NCBI GenBank assembly: GCA_021735655.1
Contig: JAIPGM010000014.1
Location: 1-17,036, forward strand
From: Candidatus Omnitrophota bacterium
GTDB lineage: Bacteria; Omnitrophota; Gorgyraeia; Duberdicusellales; 4484-171
Reading direction: 5' to 3'
DNA length: 17,036 bases
Below are positions 141 to 15,286 of the stretch, piece by piece. Both the position numbers and the translations under genes were made by a program. Numbering within the stretch: the first letter of the stretch is position 1; each line of letters begins with the position of its first letter. The notes under the pieces were generated by a model. It saw nothing but the letters and a program-made list of their open reading frames with translations. It searched no databases and was not told the DNA's origin.

Positions 141-752
141 ATGAAACATTTTTATTTTTTCGGGTTGGCGGTTTTGTTGTTTTTAGGTCTGGCTTGCGAT
201 CGAGGTCCACAAGAGGTAGTTATCGACAGTTTTGAGAGTGAAATAAATCCAAAAACTGTTGATTTTGGTGCAAGTGAGAATTCGTCTATAAGCGTTGATT
301 TAGCCAAGGATATAAAAGTTTGTGGTGAGCAGTCGTTAAAAATGACTTATGATTTAAGGCCTTCGGGGTATATGTGGGTTGCTCGAGGTTATGGCTTAGA
401 CGTTGAAGGGGCTGCTCTTTGGGAAGTTAAACCTAAAGATATCAAATGGAAGAGATATAAATCAATTAGTGTTGCGATATACGGACGGAACTCGGGAGGC
501 GTTTTAGCTTTTGACTTAAAGGATAGTGGTGGAGAAATGTGGCGGACTATTATTGATGATGATTTTGAGGGTTGGAAAGGTGTAGTTTGTCCTTTCAAGA
601 ATTTCTTTCCTCGTAAAGATTGGCAACCGGACACTGCCAAGAAGAATGATAAATTAGACTTTCCGATTATGAGTTTTCAATTCGAGCCACGGCTTCCTGG
701 CATCGGCGTCTATTATTTTGACTGCATAAAGGCTGTGAAAGTAGAAAAATAA
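141..752 (+). CDS. Putative secreted lipoprotein with a beta-sandwich (CBM / galactose-binding-like) appearance. Function unknown.
   Basis: Hydrophobic N-terminal signal followed by a Cys (…FLGLAC|DRG), which is lipobox-like. AGGAG RBS 6 nt upstream. The mature part is rich in Gly, aromatic and acidic residues (GYMWVARGYG, DDDFEGWKG), reminiscent of carbohydrate-binding or CIA30-type beta-sandwich domains. The stop TAA is immediately followed by the ATG of the next gene. Confidence 0.55.
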   Translation: MKHFYFFGLAVLLFLGLACDRGPQEVVIDSFESEINPKTVDFGASENSSISVDLAKDIKVCGEQSLKMTYDLRPSGYMWVARGYGLDVEGAALWEVKPKDIKWKRYKSISVAIYGRNSGGVLAFDLKDSGGEMWRTIIDDDFEGWKGVVCPFKNFFPRKDWQPDTAKKNDKLDFPIMSFQFEPRLPGIGVYYFDCIKAVKVEK

Positions 753-1778
753 ATGTCCGGTAAAGTCATTGATTTATCAAAGCTAAGCGAAGAGGAATTA
801 CTTAAGGTTAAAATTCGTGACCTGGGCCTCTCAATAGAAGGCACTTGGTTAGAAGATTGTATTCAGCAGTTATATGGAGAACTTGATTCTCAAGGAATCA
901 AGTTCAAACCACCTTGCTACTTAGCCGATGAATGGCTTGCTCCTGATGAAGAGCCAATAATTGGAATACCTTTTTTTTTAGCCCATCCGACGCTTATTAA
1001 GCTAGAAAGGAAAATGATGCTTGATGTCGAAGGTGGTACAAAAGCCTGGTGTATGAAGTTACTTCGTCATGAAACTGGCCATGCTTTAAATTATGCCTAC
1101 AAGCTTTATCGTCGGAAAAACTGGCAAAAGATATTTGGAAAATTTTCCAAGGAGTACGCTGATACTTATCGTTTTCGTCCTTATAGCAAGAATTTCGTTC
1201 GGCATTTGGAAAATCATTATGCTCAATATCATCCTGATGAGGATTTTTCGGAAACTTTTGCTGTCTGGCTTACGCCGGGGCTTAATTGGCAACAACAGTA
1301 TAAGGGTTGGCGGGTGATAAGTAAACTTCATTATGTCGATAAGATTATTAATGAAGTAAAAGATAAAGAGCCATTGGTGGAAAAGGGTAGTCGTTATTGG
1401 GAAGCTAGACGCATGCGCACGACTTTGAAGAGTTTTTATAAGAAAAAACGTCGTTCCTACGCAGAGGATTTTCCTGATTTTCACGATTCTAACTTAAGAC
1501 GAATATTTACCTTACCGGAACCGGAAAGCAAACCTTTGTCTTCGGCGGCAGCAATTTTAAAAAAGTACCGCAAAGAAATATTGAATAATGTAGCTCGTTG
1601 GACCGGAGAAAGAAAATATATTATTGGAGACCTTATTGATACTTTGATTCAGCGATCTAGGGAACTTAAATTGGTGGTTGTTGATCAGGAATCGCTGGCG
1701 GTACTTAAAATTTCTACCTATATTACGACTTTGGTGATGAACTATCTTTATACTGGAGGCTTTAGTAAGGAAAGATGA
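753..1778 (+). CDS. HExxH zincin-like putative metallopeptidase; family uncertain.
   Basis: Canonical HExxH (H-E-T-G-H, aa 106-110, nt 1068-1082) inside a helix-like context (LLRHETGHALNYAYKL). A possible third ligand (Glu/His) sits downstream (HYAQYHPDEDFSETFAVW). Start abuts the upstream stop (TAA-ATG), and the 3' end overlaps the next gene by 4 nt (ATGA). Confidence 0.6.
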   Translation: MSGKVIDLSKLSEEELLKVKIRDLGLSIEGTWLEDCIQQLYGELDSQGIKFKPPCYLADEWLAPDEEPIIGIPFFLAHPTLIKLERKMMLDVEGGTKAWCMKLLRHETGHALNYAYKLYRRKNWQKIFGKFSKEYADTYRFRPYSKNFVRHLENHYAQYHPDEDFSETFAVWLTPGLNWQQQYKGWRVISKLHYVDKIINEVKDKEPLVEKGSRYWEARRMRTTLKSFYKKKRRSYAEDFPDFHDSNLRRIFTLPEPESKPLSSAAAILKKYRKEILNNVARWTGERKYIIGDLIDTLIQRSRELKLVVVDQESLAVLKISTYITTLVMNYLYTGGFSKER

Positions 1779-2794
1779 AAAAACTAAGGGTTCTTTTGCT
1801 TTTTGATAGTCCAGTTTCGAGAATGCGCGGTTATGACTTTAAAGAGGAATTTAAGGATGTTGATTGGGATACCGAGCGCAGCACTTATGAAGTTTTAACT
1901 AAAGCGGGACACGAGGTAAGGATCTTAGGTCTTTATAATAATATTAATATACTTCTTGAAGAGATTGCCGAAATCAAACCGGACATAATTTTCAATATGG
2001 CTGAAGTGTTTAATCAAAAGTCATACCTAGATAAGAATGTTGCCGGAGTTCTTGAGATGCTAGATATTCCTTATACCGGGGCATCTTTAACTACTTTGGC
2101 TATTTGCGGCGATAAAGCTTTATGTAAAAAGATACTTAGTTTTCATAGAATTAAAGTTCCCCAGTTTTATACTTTCTATCGTCACCGGCGGATCTGGCTT
2201 CCTAAGAGACTTCGTTTACCATTAATTGTTAAACCGCTCAGTGAAGAAGCTTCTCGAGGGATTTCTCAAGCTTCAATCGTCGACAATGAGGAGGCGATGA
2301 TTGAGAGAGTTAAGTTTATTCATGATAGTATGAAGAATGACGCCATAGTTGAAGAATACATCGAAGGTCGGGAGCTTTATGTTAGTGCAATTGGTGATAA
2401 GCGAATTAAGATTTTACCTATGCGTGAGATGAAGTTTGGTAGCCTCGGTGAAGATGAGCCGCGGATCGCTACCTATAAGGCAAAGTGGGATTATAAATAT
2501 CGAAAAAAGTGGGAAATTAAAAATATGTTTGCCGGAAGGCTACCTAATGGCTCAACCGAGAAGATAAATGAAGTTTGCAAGCGTGCCTTTAGAGCTTTAA
2601 ATTTGGAGTGTTACGCCCGTTTTGACATTCGTTTAACAAACGATTCAAAAATATATATTCTTGAAGTTAATGCTAACCCTTCTTTAGACCCTGATGATGA
2701 ATTGGCCCAGTCAGCAGAAAAGGGTGGATTAACTTACGATAAGCTTATTCAAAAAATATTGATATTGGGGCTTAAGAGAGGTGGAAATAATTAA
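1775..2794 (+). CDS. ATP-grasp enzyme of the D-Ala-D-Ala ligase / RimK-like superfamily (amidoligase).
   Basis: Collinear with the Ddl fold throughout. RVLLLFD at the N-terminus; DIPYTGASLTTLAICGDKALCKKIL in the central domain; PLIVKPLSEEASRGIS (P-loop-like); EEYIEGRELYVSAIGD; an omega-loop-like KAKWDYKY; and the C-terminal Mg/ATP motif ARFDIRLTNDSKIYILEVNANPSL. It lacks the HG..GEDG block I expect in genuine Ddl. Confidence 0.85.
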   Translation: MKKLRVLLLFDSPVSRMRGYDFKEEFKDVDWDTERSTYEVLTKAGHEVRILGLYNNINILLEEIAEIKPDIIFNMAEVFNQKSYLDKNVAGVLEMLDIPYTGASLTTLAICGDKALCKKILSFHRIKVPQFYTFYRHRRIWLPKRLRLPLIVKPLSEEASRGISQASIVDNEEAMIERVKFIHDSMKNDAIVEEYIEGRELYVSAIGDKRIKILPMREMKFGSLGEDEPRIATYKAKWDYKYRKKWEIKNMFAGRLPNGSTEKINEVCKRAFRALNLECYARFDIRLTNDSKIYILEVNANPSLDPDDELAQSAEKGGLTYDKLIQKILILGLKRGGNN

Positions 2795-2796
2795 TT

Positions 2797-3054
2797 ATGG
2801 GTGCAGAGATTTTTGTAGCTCGTTGTTATGATGTTGGAGGAGTAGGTTTGGTAATCAATGGCTGGGTCCAGTCAGGTGAGATTAGGGAAGGATCAGTCGG
2901 TAGAACCTATAAAGGAAAAAGATTTACTTTGGTAAAGATTGAAAAAGAAGGTAAGCAAATTCCTAAGGCTGTTGAGAAAGATAAGATTAATCTTTTTGTT
3001 AAACATGTTAACCGCACTGAGGTGAAGCCGGGTGAGACTGTTTATTTTGAGTAG
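2797..3054 (+). CDS. Small (85 aa) stand-alone beta-barrel protein resembling EF-Tu domain 2 (translation-protein beta-barrel). It ends in -VYFE.
   Basis: The whole length matches EF-Tu D2: VGGVGLVINGWVQSGEIREGSVG aligns with GTVVTGRVERGIIKVGEEV, and the C-terminal KINLFVKHVNRTEVKPGETV aligns with [21 protein letters not shown]. Starts 2 nt after the ATP-grasp stop. Family placement is by eye, so confidence is moderate. Confidence 0.5.
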   Translation: MGAEIFVARCYDVGGVGLVINGWVQSGEIREGSVGRTYKGKRFTLVKIEKEGKQIPKAVEKDKINLFVKHVNRTEVKPGETVYFE

Positions 3055-3639: not shown

Positions 3640-4395
3640 ATGTCTAAAACTGTAAAAAATTTAATTATTGCCAATGTTTCAGTTTTTCTGCTTAGCTCTA
3701 TTTGGCAAGAGTTTCCGATCGGGCTGTTAGCTATGGTTCCGAGATTGGTCTTTTCAAAGTTAATGATTTGGCAGCTAGTTACCTATATGTTTGTGCATCT
3801 TGATTTGTGGCATTTGGTGATGAATATGCTGATGCTTTGGTTTTTTGGACCAGCAATCGAGGCAGCTTGGGGCCAGAAGCGATTTTTAATTTATTATTTT
3901 TTTACTGGTATCGGCGCAGCTTTATGCAGTGTTATTTTTTCCTTTAATTCACCGATAATCGGAGCCTCGGGTGCAATATTTGGAATATTGGTTGCTTACG
4001 CCATGCTTTATCCTGATAATATGATTTTGTTTTTTTTCTTTGTTCCGATGAAGATGAAACATGCTGTTTTTGTCTTAGCCGGAATAAATCTTTTGGGGGC
4101 AATTTCAGCTTCTGGCAGTGGCATTGCTTACATAGCTCATTTAGGCGGTGGTCTTTTTGGTTACCTTTACTTAAAAAACGAAACTTTACGCCATCGCCTT
4201 CTATCTTTAGACTTTGAGAAGATCAAATCATGGTTTAATAAGCCATCGGCAAAACCGACAAAGTCTACTAAACCCAATAAGCCTAAAACCTTTGATGAAC
4301 GGGTTGATGAGATTCTTGATAAGATATCCAAGAAAGGAATGGCTAGCCTTACTAAGGAGGAGATAGATATCCTTGATCGACGTAGTCGTTCTTAA
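3640..4395 (+). CDS. Rhomboid-family intramembrane serine protease with a C-terminal Pro/Lys-rich linker and a SHOCT-like tail.
   Basis: Multiple TM helices. Catalytic GxSG (GASGAIFGIL) and a His in AHLGGGLFG sit in the last TM helices. The tail KPSAKPTKSTKPNKPK followed by ERVDEILDKISKKGMASLTKEEIDILD fits the L-x-L-x3-G-x-[IL]-T-x-EE-[FI] SHOCT pattern. Confidence 0.85.
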   Translation: MSKTVKNLIIANVSVFLLSSIWQEFPIGLLAMVPRLVFSKLMIWQLVTYMFVHLDLWHLVMNMLMLWFFGPAIEAAWGQKRFLIYYFFTGIGAALCSVIFSFNSPIIGASGAIFGILVAYAMLYPDNMILFFFFVPMKMKHAVFVLAGINLLGAISASGSGIAYIAHLGGGLFGYLYLKNETLRHRLLSLDFEKIKSWFNKPSAKPTKSTKPNKPKTFDERVDEILDKISKKGMASLTKEEIDILDRRSRS

Positions 4396-4437
4396 CCCGC
4401 CATTTTGTTAGTTTTTCCTAGAAACTTACTGCTGAGC

Positions 4438-4466
4438 TTGACAAACCAAGATAAATAGGCTATACT
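4438..4466 (+). promoter_or_regulatory. Near-consensus sigma70 promoter: TTGACA (4438-4443), 17 nt spacer, TATACT (4461-4466).
   Basis: Read directly from the sequence. It lies in the only sizeable intergenic gap (4396-4512), about 47 nt upstream of the MarR ATG. An AGGAGG Shine-Dalgarno is at 4501-4506. Confidence 0.6.
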
Positions 4467-4473
4467 TTGGTTG

Positions 4474-4495
4474 ATTAATAGTTCACATTATTAAT
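4474..4495 (+). promoter_or_regulatory. Inverted repeat ATTAATA-N8-TATTAAT between the -10 element and the RBS; candidate MarR operator.
   Basis: Perfect 7-bp arms read from the sequence. Position relative to the -10/+1 region is typical of MarR autoregulatory sites. The AT-rich context makes chance palindromes more likely. Confidence 0.35.
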
Positions 4496-4512
4496 ATTTT
4501 AGGAGGTTAATT

Positions 4513-4974
4513 ATGCCTAAAGAAAGTCAAATAAAACAATTTTCTCAAGAGCTTACCGAAAGTATATCTTATATCCAGCGAATGGCCCGAATATTGCTAA
4601 GAGAGCGTTCCGATGCATTAATTCAGGGAAAAGTAACCATGCCCCAGTATTTGAGTCTCGAGTTGCTCAGTAATCATGGCGTTCTAAAGATGAAAGATAT
4701 TGCCAAAGCTTTAAATATTAGTCTTCCAGCGGCAACTGGCTTGGTGAATCGTTTGGTCAAAATGAAGTTAGTTGAGCGGGTTTATGATCAAGAAGACCGC
4801 CGGGTAATATTTGTTGAGCTCACCAGTGAAGGGAAAAAAACTACTGATGAAACTAAGTTAGCCCGGAGAAAAATTATTGAGGAGATGTTTGGCGGTATTA
4901 CCGATGAAGAAAGGGAAATTTATATTAGAATTATTCGCAAGGTAAAGAGTAATTTAAATGAAAAAGCTAAGTAA
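4513..4974 (+). CDS. MarR-family winged-helix transcriptional regulator.
   Basis: The wHTH core (TMPQYLSLELLSNHGVLKMKDIAKALNISLPAATGLVNRLVKMKLVERVYDQEDRRVIFVELTSEGKK) matches the MarR recognition helix and wing pattern. Size is 153 aa. The 3' end overlaps the next gene by 17 nt. Confidence 0.85.
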   Translation: MPKESQIKQFSQELTESISYIQRMARILLRERSDALIQGKVTMPQYLSLELLSNHGVLKMKDIAKALNISLPAATGLVNRLVKMKLVERVYDQEDRRVIFVELTSEGKKTTDETKLARRKIIEEMFGGITDEEREIYIRIIRKVKSNLNEKAK

Positions 4975-6439
4975 AAGTAAAAACATTAGTTTATTTTTAA
5001 TTCTAGTGGCAGGATTTTTTTTAACTTTTAAAGGTTTCACTGAAGACCTATTGCCTTTGGAATTGTCTTTAGAAGAGGTAACCGAGATTGCTTTGGAAAA
5101 TTCTTTGGATATTCAGATTGCTAAGTTTGATACCTATATTAGTAGAACCTCTAAAGATGAGGCTGAATCAATATTTGATACTATTTTTAGCGCTGAAGCT
5201 AGCTATAATCGAAATCGAAAAGAAACGGCCAGTTCTTTGGCCGGAACCGATACTCGAGAGACTATTTTTTCATTGGGTCTTGAGAAAAAACTACCTACCG
5301 GAACCACGCTTGCTCTAGATGCAATCAACACCAAGACTAAAACTAATAGTTCTTTTACTACCTTAAATCCTTATACTGAAGCTGGGCTTGAATTTTCAGT
5401 AACTCAGGAGTTAGGTAGGAATTTCTTTGGCTTAGCTGATCGGGCTAAGATTAAAATTACTAAAATCGATATTGAAAATTCTGAGTTTGTGTCTTTGGAT
5501 GATATTGAACAGTTTCTCTATGCTGTTCAGCGTTCCTATTGGAATTTAGCACTTCGCGAAGAAGAGCTTTTAATCGCTAAAGATATGCTGTCGGAAGCAG
5601 AAAAACTTTATGAAATTTACAAGGAAAAGAAAGAGCTAGGCTTGGTCGAGGAGAGTGAATTTTTAGCAATTGAGGCTTTACTTAAGGCCCGTCAAAGTAG
5701 CATTAATGTAGCTCAATTAGCTCGGGAAACGGCAAAGAATGATTTATTATTTTTAATTAACCGTGGTGATTTTCAGCAAAATCTTATTCCTCGGGATAGT
5801 CTAGATATCGAGGTTTTTGAGACAGATTTATATCAAGCTTTGAATCGGGCAGTTGATTCGCGTCGTGACTATAAGCGGATTAAAAATGAGTTAGAGAAAA
5901 ACAAGATTGATTTGGTGGTTAAAAAGAATGCCCTTTGGCCGCAAATAGATTTTGAGGCTACTTTTACTCGCAATAATATTGATACCGGACGCAGTCAGGC
6001 TTGGGGGGATATTTTTAGCGATGGCGGCGAAGATGTTTTTTTTAAAGTAAGTTTTGAGGTACCGCTTGAAAAAAGAGCGGCTCGTTCTCAAGTTCGCAAG
6101 GCCGACTTAGAAAAATCTCGGTTTTTACTCAAGTTTAAGCGAATTGAACGTCTATTGTTACAGGAAATCAACGATAAGGTTAATCAGGTAAATACGATGC
6201 AGAATCAAGTCAAACTATTTAAGCAGACGGTTAAAATTCATCAGCGCAAACTTAAGAGTCAAATTGAGCGTTTAAGTTTGGGGCGCTCTGATTCAGATAC
6301 GCTTATTCGTTACGAGGAAGACTTATTAAAAGCACGTTTATCTTTAGCGGAGTATTTATTTAATTATCGTACTAGTTTGATCGAGCTGGATTTAAAACAG
6401 AACATTTTACTAGATAAGTATTGGCAGGAGCCACTTTAG
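4958..6439 (+). CDS. TolC-family outer-membrane efflux protein (outer membrane factor, OMF).
   Basis: N-terminal signal peptide, then the classic OMF opening (LSLEEVTEIALENSLDIQIAKFD…). Two-fold internal repeat of beta-strand and coiled-coil segments. 493 aa. Confidence 0.85.
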   Translation: MKKLSKSKNISLFLILVAGFFLTFKGFTEDLLPLELSLEEVTEIALENSLDIQIAKFDTYISRTSKDEAESIFDTIFSAEASYNRNRKETASSLAGTDTRETIFSLGLEKKLPTGTTLALDAINTKTKTNSSFTTLNPYTEAGLEFSVTQELGRNFFGLADRAKIKITKIDIENSEFVSLDDIEQFLYAVQRSYWNLALREEELLIAKDMLSEAEKLYEIYKEKKELGLVEESEFLAIEALLKARQSSINVAQLARETAKNDLLFLINRGDFQQNLIPRDSLDIEVFETDLYQALNRAVDSRRDYKRIKNELEKNKIDLVVKKNALWPQIDFEATFTRNNIDTGRSQAWGDIFSDGGEDVFFKVSFEVPLEKRAARSQVRKADLEKSRFLLKFKRIERLLLQEINDKVNQVNTMQNQVKLFKQTVKIHQRKLKSQIERLSLGRSDSDTLIRYEEDLLKARLSLAEYLFNYRTSLIELDLKQNILLDKYWQEPL

Positions 6440-6451
6440 GAGAGCAAAGCG

Positions 6452-9400
6452 ATGAGTATTGTTGAATTTTCAGTAAAGCGTTCACTTTTAGTAAACCTTA
6501 TTTCAGTTTTTATCTTAGTCGCTGGGTTTTTGTCGGTTTTTGTGTTTAAGATTAGAAGAGAGGCTTTTCCTGAAGTTTCTTATGACATTGTCATTGTTAG
6601 TACGGTTTATCCGGGGGCAGCCCCCGAGGAGGTAGAAAAGCTAGTTACCATACCGATTGAAAAGGAGTTAAAGGGAGTAGACGGAATAGAGAAGATGAAG
6701 TCTACCTCCCTAGAGAACTCTTCAAACATTTCAATCGAGATAAGCCAAGATGTAAAAAACAAGCGCAAGGTTATTACCGATATTCAAAAGGCGGTTGATC
6801 GAGTAAGAGATTTACCGGCCGGAGTAGAGGATGACCCAGTAGTAAGTGAGGTTACTTCTGGAGAGTTTCCGGTAGTTCAGGTAGCCTTAAGTGGTGATAT
6901 GCCTGAGAAAGAGCTTCAAGAGTATGCTGAAAATCTAGAAGATATCCTAGAAGATATTCCTGGTGTTTCAAAGATTTCTCGGATTGGTTATCGAGATCGA
7001 GAAGTCTGGGTTGAGGTTGATCCACAAAAGCTAAGCTCTTTTCATTTAAGCCTTGAAGAGGTAATGGAAGCTCTGGCTAGGAAAAACCGAAGTATTCCCG
7101 GAGGAAAAATCAGAGGAGTTCAAGAGTTCAGCATTCGGACAACCGGTGAATTTTATACTAAAGAAGAAATTGAAGATGTGGTTATCCGGGCTAATGAGAC
7201 TGGGAATTGGCTAAGAGTAAAAGATGTGGCTGAAGTAAAGTTTTCTTTTGAGGATGAAAACACAATTAATAAAAGTTTTGGTACTCGGTCGATAGACCTT
7301 ACTGTAATCAAGCGGGCTAGCGGTGACGCGATTGAAATAGTTGAAAAAGTCAAGCTTAAGACTGAAAAATTTTTAACTCAGACAAATGATTCTCGTTTGG
7401 AAACTTCTTACATTAATGACATATCTTTTTATATTAAACGTCGGCTAGGTACGCTTAAAAATAACGGAATAGTCGGTATTGTTTTAGTTTGTTTTGTTTT
7501 GATGATATTTTTGCAATTTCGGATTGCTTTGATAACTGCTATTGGACTTCCGATTGCTTTTTGTGCAACTTTGGCGGTAATGAGCTTTGTTGGTTTGAGT
7601 ATAAACCTAGTTACCATGTTTGGTTTGATTGTGGTTTTGGGTATGTTAGTTGATGATGGCATTATTGTTTCTGAGAATTGTTCACGCTATCTAGAAGAGG
7701 GCCATTCACCTTATCAGGCGGCTATTTTAGGAACCCAGGAAGTAATAAAACCAGTTACTACTACAATAATTACGACCATTGCTGCTTTTAGTCCGCTTCT
7801 TTTTATGGGGGGGATGATGGGGAAGTTTATCTGGGGGATACCTCTGGTAGTTATTATTGCTCTTTGTGCTTCTTTATTTGAAGCCTTAGTTATTTTGCCT
7901 TCGCATTTTGCCGATTTTATTCGTCGGGATAAAAATTTTAAATCGCGTAAAGAACTCCCTTGGTTTAAGAAATTGGTCGTTGTCTATACTCGATTAGTGA
8001 CTAAGGCTTTAAATCGGCGTTGGTGGGTATTGGGAGGATTATTTTTAGTTTTAATTTTAACTGTTGGTTTAGTTATGCACATGCCAAAAATTCTTTTTGC
8101 TTCTGAAGAAGGAATAGAAGAGTTTACTGTCCGGGCCGAAGCCCCAGTCGGAACTAATCTTTATTCCACTGATAAGTTAATTAAACCGATAGAGGAAGAA
8201 GTCGCTAAGATGCCTAAAAATCAGGTCGAAGCCTACACTACTCAAGTTGGTTCAATCGGTGATAGTTGGCATTTTGATCCTTATGGTAAGAGCGGTAGCC
8301 ATGTAGTTCAGGTGACAGTTCACTTAACGCCTTATAAGCAGCGCAAAAGAAAGGTTAGTCAGATCATCGAAGACCTACGAACTAAAATTGGTGATGTTGA
8401 GGGGTTTGATCGGGTTTACTTTGAGAAACCTCAGGCTGGACCTCCGGTCGGTGCACCGGTTGCGGTTGAAATTCGCGGCGAGAGCTTTGAAGTTTTAAAC
8501 AAAATCGCTAATCAGATAAATGAATTTTTAAAAACCATTCCCGGTATTTCCGATATAGTATCTGATTATGAGGTTGGCAGAGGAGAAATTCGGGTTATTG
8601 TTGATGAAGAAAAAGCTGCCCGGACCTATTTGTCGGTCGGTGAAGTGGCTTCAAGTATTCGCAATGCTTTTCGCGGCGGGGTGGCTACTTCAATTAAGCC
8701 GGTTAAGGCTGAAGAAGAGATTGATGTTTTAGTGAGATTTCCCGATGACTATCGTACTAAGCGAGAATCCTTTGAAAAAATATTAGTTCCTAATAAGTTT
8801 GGTAATTTAATCCCTTTAGCTAAGATAGCTAGATTTGAGGATGGTGTATCGGTAGCCAGGGTTCAGCATCTCGACGGAAAAAGAGTGATATCGGTCAAAG
8901 CTAACGTTGATAACCAGAACATTACTTCTAATGAAGCTAATAAGCTGATTAAGGATAAATTTAAGGATGTTTCAATTAATTTTCCCGGATATAGTATACA
9001 GTTTGGCGGAGAGCAAAGGGAAAATGTCCGTTCAATGAAAGATTTCGCTAATGCTTTTATTCTGGCCTTGTTTTTAATTTTTTTAATTTTAGCCGCTAAC
9101 TTTAATTCATTGGTTCAGCCGTTAATCGTTATGATGGCGATTCCTTTTGGTTTTATCGGAGTCATCTGGGCTTTTTTCTTCCATGGTTTACCGATCGGTT
9201 TTTTTATGTTTATGGGTGCAGTAGGTTTAACTGGAATAGTAGTTAATGATTCTATAGTTTTGGTTGAGTTTGTTAATAATTTAAGAAGAAAAGGGGTCGA
9301 TCGAAGACATTCATTAATTCAAGCCGGTCAGTTACGCTTGCGGCCGGTTTTACTTACTACGATTACTACTGCTCTTGGTTTGACCCCGACAGCCTATGGT

Positions 9401-9574
9401 ATTTGGGGCGGAGACCCATTTTTAAAGCCAATGGCTTTGACTATTGTTTGGGGTATAGTTTGTGCAACCGTTCTAACTTTGGTTGTCTTGCCTTGTATTT
9501 ATGCTATTATAGATGATATTACTTTAAAGCTGGCTGGCCATACGACAGTTAAGAAAAGCAATATCACTATATGA
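6452..9574 (+). CDS. RND-superfamily efflux permease (AcrB-like, HAE1-type architecture, 12 TM).
   Basis: 1040 aa. TM1 followed by a large periplasmic domain (VSTVYPGAAPEEVEKLVTIPIEKEL). The TM4 proton-relay pair is present (MLVDDGIIVSEN; DD at nt 7652-7657). There is a second large periplasmic loop, and an Arg in TM11 (LRLRPVLLTT). No adaptor gene is present either side. Confidence 0.93.
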   Translation: MSIVEFSVKRSLLVNLISVFILVAGFLSVFVFKIRREAFPEVSYDIVIVSTVYPGAAPEEVEKLVTIPIEKELKGVDGIEKMKSTSLENSSNISIEISQDVKNKRKVITDIQKAVDRVRDLPAGVEDDPVVSEVTSGEFPVVQVALSGDMPEKELQEYAENLEDILEDIPGVSKISRIGYRDREVWVEVDPQKLSSFHLSLEEVMEALARKNRSIPGGKIRGVQEFSIRTTGEFYTKEEIEDVVIRANETGNWLRVKDVAEVKFSFEDENTINKSFGTRSIDLTVIKRASGDAIEIVEKVKLKTEKFLTQTNDSRLETSYINDISFYIKRRLGTLKNNGIVGIVLVCFVLMIFLQFRIALITAIGLPIAFCATLAVMSFVGLSINLVTMFGLIVVLGMLVDDGIIVSENCSRYLEEGHSPYQAAILGTQEVIKPVTTTIITTIAAFSPLLFMGGMMGKFIWGIPLVVIIALCASLFEALVILPSHFADFIRRDKNFKSRKELPWFKKLVVVYTRLVTKALNRRWWVLGGLFLVLILTVGLVMHMPKILFASEEGIEEFTVRAEAPVGTNLYSTDKLIKPIEEEVAKMPKNQVEAYTTQVGSIGDSWHFDPYGKSGSHVVQVTVHLTPYKQRKRKVSQIIEDLRTKIGDVEGFDRVYFEKPQAGPPVGAPVAVEIRGESFEVLNKIANQINEFLKTIPGISDIVSDYEVGRGEIRVIVDEEKAARTYLSVGEVASSIRNAFRGGVATSIKPVKAEEEIDVLVRFPDDYRTKRESFEKILVPNKFGNLIPLAKIARFEDGVSVARVQHLDGKRVISVKANVDNQNITSNEANKLIKDKFKDVSINFPGYSIQFGGEQRENVRSMKDFANAFILALFLIFLILAANFNSLVQPLIVMMAIPFGFIGVIWAFFFHGLPIGFFMFMGAVGLTGIVVNDSIVLVEFVNNLRRKGVDRRHSLIQAGQLRLRPVLLTTITTALGLTPTAYGIWGGDPFLKPMALTIVWGIVCATVLTLVVLPCIYAIIDDITLKLAGHTTVKKSNITI

Positions 9575-11463
9575 TTTTTTTAAATAACCTTTCCAAAAGT
9601 TACGGTTCGAGGATTCTTTTTGAGAATTTTTCCTTAACCATTGATCGCGGTGAACGAATCGGCTTGGTTGGTCCCAACGGAGCTGGCAAATCTACACTTT
9701 TCAATATTATTCTTAAGCAAAACGAAAGCTCTTCGGGAACTATTCAGATAAATAAAGGTGTTCGTATTGGTTATCTTGCTCAAGAGGTAACCTTTAATTC
9801 AGAAGCTACAGTTTTGTCAGAGCTAACTGCTGGTGATGAGTCGATTAAGAAGCTCAAAAAAGAAAAGGATGCTTTAGAGAAAGAGAACAAAGCTGCCGGA
9901 GCTCGCTACGGGGCAGTACTCCACGATTTAGAGTTTTTTGGTTATTTTGATTTAGAGCATCGAGCTAAAAAAATATTAAGCGGCTTAGGCTTTGCGAATT
10001 CAGATTTTAATCGGCCGGTTAATGAAATGAGCGGTGGTTTTAAGATGCGAGTTTTATTGGCTAAGCTGTTGCTGTATCCTTATGATATTTTACTTTTGGA
10101 TGAACCTACCAACTTTCTAGATTTAGAAGCAGCTATTTGGTTTAAAGATTATTTATTAAAATTTAAGGGAACTTTTGTGATGATTTCTCACGATCGGGAT
10201 TTTCTTACCGAGGTAACCAGCGACACTTTAGTTTTAGAAAACGGAGCAATCACTAAGATCAAGGGAAATTATGATGATTATGAAAAGATGTGTAATGAGC
10301 AGCGAGAGCGCCTGCTTAAGCAGTTTAAGGAGCAGGATAAAAAGTGTAAACAATTGAAAGTTTTTATTAATCGGTTTCATGCTCAGCCGAATAAGGCTTC
10401 CCAGGTTAGATCTAAGAAACGGATGTTAGAGAAGATGGATATCATTAACGTACCGTTAGATCGCAAGGAAAGTATCCGCAAGTTTAATTTTCCAAAGGCC
10501 ACACGCAGTGGCTACCGGGCGATAGAGCTTAAAAGTATTTCTAAAGCTTACGGTGATATCTCGGTGTATCAAGATTTTGATTTTGAACTAACTCGAGGAG
10601 AAAAGTCAGTTTTTATCGGCCATAATGGAGCCGGCAAATCGACCCTCTTAAAGATTTTGGCCGGAGTTATTGATATTGATTCCGGATCGCGGATTCTTGG
10701 CACCAATATTGATATTGGTTATTTTTCACAAACCCGTCTTGATGTTCTAACTCCCGATAATACTGTTTTTGAAGAAGCCTATTCAGCTTCCGGAGGCAGG
10801 CTGACTAATGATGAGATTAGAACGGTTTTGGCCGCTTTTTTATTTACCGGAGACGATGTTGAGAAGAAGGTTAGCATTCTTTCCGGAGGAGAGAAGAGTC
10901 GTTTGATTTTAGCAAAACTTTTAATTAACCCTCCTAACTTTTTGCTTTTGGATGAGCCGACAACTCATCTTGATGTTGATGCAGTTGAGGCATTAATCAG
11001 AGCTTTAAAAGAATACGACGGAACACTTGTTTTTATAAGTCATGATATCCATTTTGTTCGCTCGGTAGCCAATATGGTTTTTGAAATCAATAAGGGGCGA
11101 GTAAGGAAATTTCCCGGCAGCTTTGATTACTATTGGCAAACTGCCAGGCATAAAGATGTTGTTGAGCTTAAACGTAAAAAAATAAAATCGAAATCGTCCC
11201 CAGTAAAAGAAATGTCAGAAAAAGATAAGGAAAAGAAACAAAAAAAAGAAAACGAGAAAATTTCCAAGAAGATAAAAGCCCTTAGGAAAGAAAAAGAAGA
11301 CTTAGAGCTGGAATATAATGTGAAGTGGCGGGTTGTTTCTAATCCCCGCAGCTATCATCGTAAAGAGGTAGCTTCTGAATATAGCCAACGCTTGAAAGAA
11401 CTGAAGTGCCAAATAGCGAAAAATGATCAAGAGATAAAGGACCTCAAAAAGCTGTTTAAATAG
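9571..11463 (+). CDS. ABC-F family ATPase: two ABC domains, an inter-domain linker, and a Lys/Glu-rich C-terminal coiled-coil (Uup/EttA-like architecture).
   Basis: Two Walker A motifs (GPNGAGKST, GHNGAGKST) and two signature motifs (MSGGFKMRV, LSGGEKSRL). Walker B motifs LLLDEPTNFLD and LLLDEPTTHLD. No transmembrane domain. The C-terminal KRKKIKSKS…KEKKQKKENEKISKKIKALRKEKEDLE tail is present. The ATG overlaps the RND stop (ATGA). Confidence 0.9.
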   Translation: MIFLNNLSKSYGSRILFENFSLTIDRGERIGLVGPNGAGKSTLFNIILKQNESSSGTIQINKGVRIGYLAQEVTFNSEATVLSELTAGDESIKKLKKEKDALEKENKAAGARYGAVLHDLEFFGYFDLEHRAKKILSGLGFANSDFNRPVNEMSGGFKMRVLLAKLLLYPYDILLLDEPTNFLDLEAAIWFKDYLLKFKGTFVMISHDRDFLTEVTSDTLVLENGAITKIKGNYDDYEKMCNEQRERLLKQFKEQDKKCKQLKVFINRFHAQPNKASQVRSKKRMLEKMDIINVPLDRKESIRKFNFPKATRSGYRAIELKSISKAYGDISVYQDFDFELTRGEKSVFIGHNGAGKSTLLKILAGVIDIDSGSRILGTNIDIGYFSQTRLDVLTPDNTVFEEAYSASGGRLTNDEIRTVLAAFLFTGDDVEKKVSILSGGEKSRLILAKLLINPPNFLLLDEPTTHLDVDAVEALIRALKEYDGTLVFISHDIHFVRSVANMVFEINKGRVRKFPGSFDYYWQTARHKDVVELKRKKIKSKSSPVKEMSEKDKEKKQKKENEKISKKIKALRKEKEDLELEYNVKWRVVSNPRSYHRKEVASEYSQRLKELKCQIAKNDQEIKDLKKLFK

Positions 11464-11487
11464 GCCATTTTTTGCTATAATCATTAG

Positions 11488-12270
11488 ATGTTTGTAATTA
11501 AGATAAAGCCTGAAAGAAAAATTGATATTATTGTTCGGATCGGCCTGTATATAAGCCTAGGTTTACTTATTGCTTCTTTTGTTCAAAAAGGCGTACTTCC
11601 CAAAAAGAAAGCAATACATCCTGATTTGTATCAAGAGCCGATTCAGCGTGAGACCTACACTCCTTCTTTTGAAGCAAAAGCTGAGGGTTCAATTTACGAT
11701 ATAAATCCGAGTCACCACTATAAACTTAATGGTTTGGTTGTTTCTCAACACGACTCAACCGCTTGGTGGGATTATTATCATAAAAAATGGGGTGATTCAT
11801 TAAATCTAAAAGATGTTTGTGTTATTTGGGGCGATAACCTTGAGAATGAAACCTATCGAAGAATGCGTTTTAGAAATGGTAATTGGACTTGCTATGTGTC
11901 AGTAAATCATAAAACAGCTGATCAAGATTGGGCACAGTTTAATATGGCGGCTTTATCCAATAATCACCTTTTGTCGGATAAAGCTGAAATCAACCAGGCT
12001 TTACGCAAGGTGCATGTTGGTGATCAGATTTATCTCAAAGGATACTTGGCATCCTATCATCGTCAAGGAAGCCATTTTTCTCGTGACTCAAGTATCTCGC
12101 GAACCGATGAAGGTGATGGCGCTTGTGAAACAATTTACCTTACTGATTTTAAGGTTCTTAAAAGCGCTAATTTTTTTTGGTGGTCAGTTTATGGAGTATC
12201 TAAATATTTAGTCTTGATATTATTCATTTTTTTAGTTTTCCTTCGAATTCAAGCCCCTTTGAGCAGGTAA
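11488..12270 (+). CDS. Hypothetical membrane protein of unknown function, with a TM helix at each end.
   Basis: Predicted TM helices at aa ~15-35 and ~225-250, flanking a ~190-aa hydrophilic domain rich in Trp, His and Tyr (WWDYYHKKWGDS, NGNWTCYVSVNH). I see no recognisable family motif. The start has a weak RBS. Confidence 0.5.
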   Translation: MFVIKIKPERKIDIIVRIGLYISLGLLIASFVQKGVLPKKKAIHPDLYQEPIQRETYTPSFEAKAEGSIYDINPSHHYKLNGLVVSQHDSTAWWDYYHKKWGDSLNLKDVCVIWGDNLENETYRRMRFRNGNWTCYVSVNHKTADQDWAQFNMAALSNNHLLSDKAEINQALRKVHVGDQIYLKGYLASYHRQGSHFSRDSSISRTDEGDGACETIYLTDFKVLKSANFFWWSVYGVSKYLVLILFIFLVFLRIQAPLSR

Positions 12271-14932: not shown

Positions 14933-15286
14933 ATGTTGAGATGTAAGGTCTGTAAAGTTCCTTTGAGTGGTTTTTTAAGTAAACTAGCGAGGGTTTTGTG
15001 TAAAGTTAAGCCTTCAACTGAAGAAAACGGAGTTTGTAGTAAGTGTGCTGATAAGCCGATTGGTGAAAAAAATAAAGTTCCCCTTGATCATTTAAAGGGT
15101 AAAAAATATGAGTGTAAAATATGTAAAAGAATGATTCATGAAGAGCATTCGCTTGAACATGTTAAGGCTGAGGAGTACTTAATCGAATTAATTCGCAAAG
15201 ATCATTCCAATTGGCAGCATAAGGATCCTACCTGTAAGGAATGTATTGAATATTATCGAAAGCTAGTTAAAGAAACAGAAATTTAA
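14933..15286 (+). CDS. Small Cys-rich protein with four CxxC pairs (probable double zinc ribbon); function unknown.
   Basis: CKVC (aa 5-8), CSKC (35-38), CKIC (61-64) and CKEC (101-104), plus a His-rich stretch HEEHSLEH. AGGAGG RBS upstream. No family recognised. Confidence 0.55.
   Translation: MLRCKVCKVPLSGFLSKLARVLCKVKPSTEENGVCSKCADKPIGEKNKVPLDHLKGKKYECKICKRMIHEEHSLEHVKAEEYLIELIRKDHSNWQHKDPTCKECIEYYRKLVKETEI

Follow-up and report, generated by a model that had tools for sequence, protein, structure and literature searches.

How can an efflux pump of the resistance-nodulation-division (RND) type span two membranes when the gene for its periplasmic adaptor is missing? The question is raised by a 17,036-nt contig of a Candidatus Omnitrophota bacterium (JAIPGM010000014.1), which was analysed over its entire length and is called the window below; gene context beyond its ends was read in relatives only. 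The window encodes, in this order and on the forward strand, a MarR-family regulator of 153 aa (4513-4974; Pfam MarR, 6.8e-14) that opens the module, a divergent TolC-like outer-membrane factor (OMF) of 493 aa with an N-terminal signal-like segment (4958-6439; Pfam OEP in two stretches, 1.6e-33), an AcrB-like RND permease of 1040 aa (6452-9574; Pfam ACR_tran, 5e-207) and an ABC-F protein of 630 aa (9571-11463; two ABC_tran domains plus ABC_tran_Xtn). The first two genes overlap by 17 nt, the OMF and RND genes are separated by 12 nt, and the RND and ABC-F genes overlap by 4 nt (ATGA). These coordinates agree with the gene order and the overlapping or near-abutting junctions given in the original prediction, which was made from the letters of the window. 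It also held that either the adaptor, a membrane fusion protein (MFP), is encoded elsewhere or the pump works in a non-canonical way. Sequence comparisons indicate that the missing adaptor gene characterises a large clade, in which the trait is fixed and monophyletic, and is not a quirk of this contig, and the evidence leans to the non-canonical alternative. We tentatively favour direct docking of the OMF and the permease without an adaptor over an adaptor supplied in trans, giving it not quite an even chance.

Adaptor genes in the window and in related loci

The window contains 19 open reading frames (ORFs) of at least 80 aa, all on the forward strand except two antisense ORFs nested within other genes. 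No HlyD/MFP Pfam match was obtained among the 17 window ORFs of at least 80 aa that were scanned, and phmmer searches with five E. coli MFP seeds (AcrA, CusB, MacA, MdtA and EmrA) detected nothing among the window ORFs of at least 100 aa, bearing out the earlier statement that no ORF in the window is adaptor-like. Four contexts with different flanks showed the same (MarR-)OMF-RND arrangement with no HlyD gene within 10 kb: the closed 1.82-Mb Omnitrophota chromosome CP070807.1, examined within 10 kb of the RND gene; the syntenic 101-kb contig L002, whose permease is 82% identical to that of the window and which was covered for 10 kb on either side; a 414-kb contig; and P0107, a contig of 15.6 kb that stops at the RND gene and thus provides upstream context only.

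A scan of species-representative genomes identified 355 relatives, and locus counts were taken from the best 80 of the 355, of which nearly all derive from Omnitrophota, either from metagenome-assembled genomes (MAGs) or from genomes of single cells; some bins that are evidently mislabelled make up the rest. Wherever upstream DNA was available in a relative (about 75 loci), the gene immediately 5' of the RND gene encodes an OMF. The gap between the two genes is at most 20 nt in 61 of 73 loci, with overlapping genes in 33 and a largest gap of 484 nt. Clustering of the ORFs within 5 kb of the pair placed a MarR gene beside it in 65 of the 80 loci, always upstream and on the same strand, and revealed no other neighbour family in more than 15 of the 80. 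The original prediction had counted the ABC-F gene as a member of the operon. It does adjoin the RND gene in the window, but the RND-ABC-F order recurs only in the closest relatives L002, L003 and L007, outside which the gene content downstream of the permease varies. Because MarR is the sole conserved neighbour and ABC-F follows the permease in only these three relatives, the conserved unit is marR-OMF-RND, with ABC-F attached only in this sub-lineage. Near-identical marR-OMF-RND cassettes (RND 51-80% identical) were also seen in L027, L031, L049, L077 and many loci labelled 'uncultured Planctomycetia', under bin labels that include Methanosarcinales archaeon, Bacteroidaceae, Nitrospirota, Ratteibacteria and Planctomycetia. 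Such labels probably reflect mislabelling or bin contamination and not transfer, an archaeon with a TolC-like OMF being implausible.

None of the five MFP seeds found an adaptor gene adjoining the RND gene in 85 related loci. As a sensitivity control, the same seeds detected an adjacent MFP gene in almost every more distant relative within the RND clade. Among about 1,570 ORFs from the related loci and the window, the sole MFP match was a HlyD-family protein (L082:19755-20759), which lies 6.6 kb downstream of the RND module within a canonical OMF (420 aa, OEP 208 bits)-MFP-MacB operon; L082 is the only locus that shows an MFP and the module on one contig. MFPs therefore exist in Omnitrophota, and the one detected is part of a complete ABC-type system that has an OMF of its own. 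This compact operon, composed of the 420-aa OMF, a MacA-like MFP of 320 aa and a fused MacB, was found in two loci (L082:18542-22749 and L179:3369-7560). The L082-type MFP is unusually conserved, its top 120 clusters being 66-82% identical and including proteins labelled Deltaproteobacteria or Coxiella, a spread that suggests either wide horizontal transfer or mislabelled bins.

Other hiding places for an adaptor were considered and rejected. A cryptic, non-homologous adaptor gene nearby was ruled out, with MarR as the only conserved neighbour family. A fusion of the adaptor to one of the partners was also ruled out: neither the OMF (493 aa, with a canonical N-terminus) nor the RND protein (1040 aa) carries an extra domain. 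The OMF-RND gap of 1.1 kb in L109 (6891-8001) is not the remnant of an MFP gene, but holds an unrelated ORF of 199 aa (7275-7874); it indicates that the OMF-RND junction tolerates insertion.

The RND clade to which the window protein belongs is very large, with members 33-64% identical to it in a search of 1.84 billion cluster representatives; all solved structures are much more remote, at about 23-25% identity. Three distant members (47%, 45% and 36% identity) again showed OMF-RND pairs without an MFP gene. A metagenome scan seeded with more distant members added 80 further loci, whose ORFs were classified. Permeases scoring about 940 bits or more against the window protein always occurred in OMF-RND pairs, those at 620 bits or less almost always had an MFP gene directly upstream (OMF-MFP-RND, MFP-RND or MFP-RND-OMF), and the zone of 650-790 bits was mixed. 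In a neighbour-joining tree rooted on CusA, which carries no support values, the MFP-less loci form one clade that includes the window and all Omnitrophota orthologues, whereas the sister group (L097, L101, L107 and L111) and all outgroups carry MFP genes. Because the MFP-less pumps are monophyletic, with an MFP-bearing sister group and outgroups, the simplest reading of these sequences is that an OMF-MFP-RND operon lost its MFP gene in a single deletion. The OMF gene was thereby left directly upstream of the RND gene, often with overlapping stop and start codons, in a sub-clade that comprises Omnitrophota and some unplaced metagenomic lineages. The earlier view that an adaptor-less OMF-RND pair is unusual was upheld, and a literature search returned no precedent for adaptor-less OMF-RND pumps or for efflux in Omnitrophota, although absence there is no proof of absence.

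Folds, relay residues and remodelled tips

The permease scores 690 bits against ACR_tran (PF00873; cut-off 28), covering approximately positions 1-1020 of the 1021 profile positions. Its AlphaFold2 model (AF2; pLDDT 79) shows the fold with 12 transmembrane helices (TM) and two large periplasmic loops forming the porter and docking domains, and Foldseek aligned it with AcrD, AcrB, CmeB and AdeJ at TM-scores of 0.86-0.88. The protein falls below every NCBIfam subfamily cut-off (RND_permease_1 and 2, 2A0602 HAE1, 2A0601 HME, MdtB/C and AcrB/D), scoring 598 bits against 1250 for RND_permease_2 (the best subfamily), 426 against 940 for HAE1 (TIGR00915) and 399 against 701 for HME (TIGR00914). The closest sequence match in the PDB is MdtB (2e-94), and identity to AcrB, MdtB, MdtC and CusA is about 23-25%. 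Alignment with MFP-containing relatives showed no insertion specific to the clade in the permease and no more than two short deletions, one of 4 and one of 5 columns. Seven RNDs of the clade (P0254, P0258, P0260, P0265, P0275, P0331 and P0338) are longer, with 1350-1500 aa and an insertion of about 300-450 aa after approximately residue 650, in the second periplasmic loop. Five of the seven gave weak WD40/beta-propeller Pfam matches, and an RND with a propeller inserted into the porter/docking region is unusual.

The pump resembles AcrAB-TolC and MexAB-OprM in the fold and length of the permease, in a docking domain with two crown hairpins, in the TolC/OprM fold of the OMF partner and in a small repressor gene upstream. 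It differs from them in having no adjacent MFP gene, in that the OMF and not the MFP gene is fixed beside the RND gene, in clade-specific crown and OMF tips, in TM10 and in its low identity (about 23%). The MdtABC system of E. coli offers the best sequence and subfamily matches, but MdtB and MdtC (24-25% identity) carry Lys-Lys-Asn in TM10, depend on MdtA and work with a TolC whose gene is unlinked.

Residue equivalences were derived from HMMER alignments with MdtB and MexK and from a MAFFT alignment with AcrB, MdtB, MdtC and CusA, and both approaches agree. Asp401-Asp402 in TM4 (7652-7657, forward strand, as are all protein features below) correspond to AcrB D407/D408 and are invariant in 116 of 116 orthologues as well as in the MFP-less and MFP-containing groups. 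Arg962 in TM11 (9335-9337; AcrB R971) and Thr969 (9356-9358; AcrB T978) are likewise invariant in the orthologues and in both sets. In TM10, AcrB Lys940-Asn941 is replaced by Asn932-Asp933 (9245-9250), with N932 present in all 116 orthologues and D933 in 111. The protein therefore keeps the other residues of the HAE1-type proton relay (D407, D408, K940, R971 and T978 in AcrB) but lacks its Lys or Arg in TM10. The by-eye reading in the original prediction, with Asn-Asp in place of the lysine and with the TM4 aspartates and TM11 arginine retained, was in the correct register. Among the solved RNDs inspected, this position is occupied by Lys in AcrB, AcrD, MexB, MdtB and MdtC, by Arg in MexK and by Glu in CusA. 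CusA of the HME system CusCBA also has no TM10 lysine, with the carboxylate Glu939 aligned there, but it compensates with a TM11 lysine, has a single TM4 aspartate and needs CusB, whereas the window protein retains the aspartate pair and the TM11 arginine.

The variant relay suggested earlier is real as far as the TM10 pair is concerned, but it is neither specific to this pump nor tied to the missing adaptor. Relatives with an adjacent MFP gene have N932 in 59 of 59 cases and D933 in 56 of 59, and VVND or VVNN is the rule among the 150 nearest cluster representatives. Because the motif is fixed in 59 relatives with an MFP gene, it is an older trait of a far larger clade, predating adaptor loss and independent of it. 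In this wider Asn-Asp clade, most permeases are encoded within ordinary (OMF-)MFP-RND operons. Carboxylates on both TM4 and TM10 are known from MmpL3, with its Asp-Tyr pairs, and from Patched and Dispatched, which combine a TM4 Asp-Asp with a TM10 Asp or Glu and so resemble D401/D402 plus D933 of the window protein. It is tempting to speculate that the D-D/N-D/R network of the wider clade uses a different coupling ion or stoichiometry than the Lys-based relay of AcrB. A literature search returned no description of natural K940 variants, an absence that is no proof.

The OMF matches OEP (PF02321) in two stretches with 116.5 bits (gathering score 22) and remains below the NCBIfam cut-offs for TolC (TIGR01844, 48.7 against 225 bits) and NodT (TIGR01845, 48.3 against 210 bits). 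Its AF2 model (mean pLDDT 73, below 50 in the second beta region) has strands at residues 75-149 and helices at 180-266 and 373-481, and all 44 Foldseek matches in the PDB with E-values of at most 0.001 were OMFs such as TolC, OprM, CmeC and CusC. In the MFP-less group, the first beta region contains about 29 extra residues, in insertions of 12, 12 and 5 columns within residues 93-135 (5234-5362), which are absent from the OMFs of adaptor-containing relatives in an alignment that is uncertain in the beta region. The model places four strands instead of two at residues 75-149, with low to moderate confidence; four strands would mean either that the barrel differs or that an additional extracellular hairpin is present.

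Differences between adaptor-less and adaptor-bearing pumps were analysed by contrasting conservation in 20 MFP-less RNDs with that in 58 or 59 MFP-containing ones. Across the entire permease, differential conservation in the MFP-less clade peaks at the tip of the DN beta-hairpin, residues 245-253 (IRANETGNW; 7184-7210; AcrB 251-259), which forms a hairpin in the AF2 model (strands 244-247 and 253-255). R246 is present in 20 of 20 MFP-less sequences, N248 in 18, G251 in 19, and N252 and W253 in 16 each, against a variable R-P-D-G-T in the MFP-containing group. The second crown hairpin, in DC, comprises residues 778-789 (LVPNKFGNLIPL; 8783-8818; AcrB approximately 790-801), with model strands at 778-780 and 786-788. 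Here R-I-R-T-P-D-G-x-E-V-P-L of the MFP-containing pumps gives way to x-x-P-N-K-F-G-N-L-I-P-L, with N781 in 20/20 and L786 in 19/20 MFP-less sequences where the MFP-containing ones have T (43/59) and E (36/59). Both hairpins thus changed from (R/T)-P-D-G to N-x-x-G-N-(W/L). Taken as a whole, the DC subdomain shows relatively lower conservation in the MFP-less group (Mann-Whitney p = 0.002), matching the relaxation expected if a surface for adaptor binding was lost; PC1 shows higher conservation (p = 0.0009).

The OMF differs from its counterparts at both periplasmic tips, which in canonical pumps are the binding place of the adaptor hairpins. Tip 1, L-G228-L-V-E231 (5636-5650), is the turn between helices 180-226 and 232-266; G228 and E231 are each found in 20 of 20 MFP-less OMFs, whereas 31 OMFs from MFP-containing operons have S, P or G at position 231. 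Tip 2, L-G442-R443-S444-D (6278-6292), lies between helices 373-440 and 446-481, and R443 (19/20) and S444 (18/20) of the MFP-less proteins contrast with mostly Leu or Val after the glycine in the MFP-containing group of 31. In known OMFs, a 'VGL'-type Gly-hydrophobic motif at these tips makes the contact with the adaptor hairpin; it is kept at tip 1 (L-G-L-V), and at tip 2 (G-R-S) its hydrophobic residue is lost. The closest relatives with the full three-part layout, the metagenomic (OMF-)MFP-RND operons of the 'VVND' clade (for example L107, L115-L119, L122 and L128), share the identical D-D/N-D/R/T relay, mostly show the order OMF-(MFP)-RND and in some cases have MarR. They differ from the window in the MFP gene between OMF and RND, in the hairpins R-P-D-G-T and T-P-D-G-x-E and in G-L/V at OMF tip 2; no experimental study of any of them was found in a literature search. 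In the old direct-docking model, contact is made between the RND crown hairpins and the OMF tips. On sequence evidence, concerted, fixed changes at all four tips, at the node where the MFP gene was lost, fit a new direct interface but do not prove one.

Direct docking and its alternatives

The trivial explanation, an artefact (an assembly error, an overlooked gene or an operon in decay in a single MAG), has in its favour that the source is a metagenome-assembled 17-kb contig. It is scarcely credible, since the same arrangement recurs in about 75 independent assemblies, single-cell genomes and the closed chromosome among them, the marR, OMF and RND genes are intact and highly conserved, and a 12-nt gap is too small for a gene. 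Hardly better is the proposal, implicit in the original prediction, that the TM10 motif and the missing adaptor are a single novelty, in which altered energy coupling made the adaptor dispensable. The window protein has both features, but the near-fixation of Asn-Asp in relatives with an adjacent MFP gene, and of Asn among the nearest representatives, makes this very improbable. A pump with no continuous conduit, in which the permease alone would act as an inner-membrane exporter or lipid shuttle delivering its substrate to the periplasm or outer membrane, while the OMF offers the substrate a diffusion path outwards or works with another partner, is unlikely, if less so. RNDs such as HpnN, MmpL3, SecDF and Patched/Dispatched do operate without an MFP, the adaptor gene is absent from the window and the related loci examined, and the best NCBIfam match of the MarR protein is the fatty-acid regulator FabT (41 against 200 bits), a weak fit to a lipid-type substrate. 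However, proteins of this kind have no TolC-like OMF partner and no AcrB docking domain, whereas the window permease has the full AcrB architecture including that domain (TM-score 0.88) and only weak MMPL, SecDF and HAE3 matches. The strict adjacency of the OMF gene and the frequent stop/start codon overlap argue for a stoichiometric complex, and the strongest clade-specific conservation lies in the crown hairpins that face the OMF.

The serious competitor is a canonical tripartite pump in which an unlinked MFP, orphan or shared and for example of the MacA type, bridges the permease and the OMF in the usual 3:6:3 assembly. Some adaptors are known to serve several RNDs, as AcrA does with AcrB and AcrD; MFPs occur in Omnitrophota, one of them on the same contig as the module, and close relatives of that protein are very widespread. 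In known systems, however, the MFP gene stays beside the RND gene and the OMF gene is often unlinked, whereas here the reverse is fixed across the clade. Some 1.3 Mb of Omnitrophota flanking DNA yielded a single MFP, which is part of a complete MacB system with its own OMF, DC is relatively relaxed, and the RND crown and the OMF tips were all remodelled at the node where the MFP disappeared. We consider an adaptor in trans a real possibility that falls well short of an even chance. Direct docking, for which the fixed OMF-RND adjacency, the single MFP loss, the remodelled tips of both proteins, the relaxation of DC and the ordinary folds speak, is the reading that we prefer.

Under direct docking, the trimeric permease would sit straight on its dedicated OMF, with the RND tips N248-x-x-G-N252-W253 and N781-x-x-G-N785-L786 contacting the OMF tips L-G228-L-V-E231 and G442-R443-S444. 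Substrates captured by the porter domain would pass directly into the OMF channel, and transport would be driven by an ion flux via D401/D402 (TM4), N932/D933 (TM10) and R962 (TM11). Such a direct stack would span approximately 170 angstroms, compared with approximately 200 or more for a pump with an adaptor ring. The module would be kept repressed by MarR and released by a ligand, probably a substrate of the pump. Extended to the whole group, the proposal reads that a monophyletic, AcrB-type family, Omnitrophota-wide and present in some other uncultured lineages, has no adaptor and functions as a two-component envelope-spanning pump whose NxxGN-W/L hairpins plug into LGLVE/GRS tips; we regard this as conceivable, at clearly less than an even chance.

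Several observations weigh against direct docking. As far as we know, all OMF-dependent RND pumps that have been studied experimentally require an adaptor, for both assembly and activity, which equally favours an adaptor in trans, and we know of no RND-OMF contact in the AcrAB-TolC and MexAB-OprM structures obtained by cryo-electron microscopy. A MacA-type MFP occurs together with the module in at least one Omnitrophota genome, and the MFP search covered loci, so an unlinked MFP is possible. OMF tip 1 keeps the canonical L-G-L-V motif, the adaptor-hairpin binder of known systems, and remodelling of the tips could equally represent adaptation to a different, unlinked adaptor. The conservation contrasts were drawn from 20 versus 59 sequences and a neighbour-joining tree, the OMF model has only moderate confidence (pLDDT 73), and the proposed interface is suggested by models of single proteins and by sequence.

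Regulatory region, neighbouring genes and significance

Upstream of marR, a sigma-70-like promoter, TTGACA-17 nt-TATACT (4438-4466, forward strand), is the top match in the region 4300-11700, with 11 of 12 positions, and would serve all three genes of the module as one strong promoter. The total of promoter-like sites in this region is not above the shuffled expectation, and a promoter function of 4438-4466 is inferred from match quality and position alone. Just 3' of the -10 box lies an inverted repeat, ATTAATA-N8-TATTAAT (4474-4495, not assigned to a strand), whose 7-nt arms are 100% complementary. By analogy with the usual position of operators in the MarR family, it is a plausible candidate for the MarR operator, although a repeat this AT-rich and short could be due to chance. 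The regulator itself has a MarR winged-helix domain (51.9 bits against a gathering score of 24.6) and reaches no NCBIfam equivalog cut-off in the scan.

The ABC-F protein, with its two ABC domains joined by an ABC_tran_Xtn linker and no membrane domain, passes the NCBIfam cut-off for 'ribosomal protection-like ABC-F' (456 against 380 bits). As a soluble protein whose position is not conserved, it was ruled out as a component of the pump; it is probably a lineage-specific passenger, here co-transcribed with the module, and not a transporter subunit. In this sub-lineage only, the MarR-controlled transcript may pair efflux with ribosome protection.

A rhomboid protease with a C-terminal DUF6576 (3640-4395) lies directly 5' of the module in the window and in L002, a position that it does not hold in relatives further removed. 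Further upstream, a co-directional cluster (141-3054) encodes a CBM11-like protein, a weakly Peptidase_Mx-like protein, an ATP-grasp protein of the D-Ala-D-Ala-ligase type and an 85-aa protein with weak similarity to an elongation-factor domain 2. Its last three genes are syntenic in L002, whose locus begins within the Peptidase_Mx gene, and the cluster may be a small peptide-ligation or modification cluster. Two ORFs downstream of the module, 11488-12270 (260 aa) and 14933-15286 (117 aa), have no Pfam or NCBIfam match and keep their position and length in L002.

Adaptors assemble the pump, open the outer-membrane channel and activate the transporter, and they are also a drug target. All mechanistic models of two-membrane RND efflux of which we are aware treat them as obligatory. 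A clade without an adaptor gene but with a transporter and a dedicated channel therefore constitutes a natural test case, and the question is directly testable because the module has three genes, the candidate interface residues can be named and the adaptor-bearing sister group provides a built-in control. That a very large, unstudied branch of the RND superfamily has Asn-Asp where AcrB has its 'essential' TM10 lysine also questions how general the AcrB proton-relay model is. If the adaptor is supplied from elsewhere in the genome, the arrangement would represent an unusual case of genomic uncoupling, with the adaptor, not the channel, as the component that is shared. If two proteins suffice, there would be consequences for the trigger that opens the channel and for the geometry of the periplasm in very small cells, and direct docking, if true, would amount to a naturally occurring case of the 'direct docking' model, which has been given up for AcrAB-TolC.

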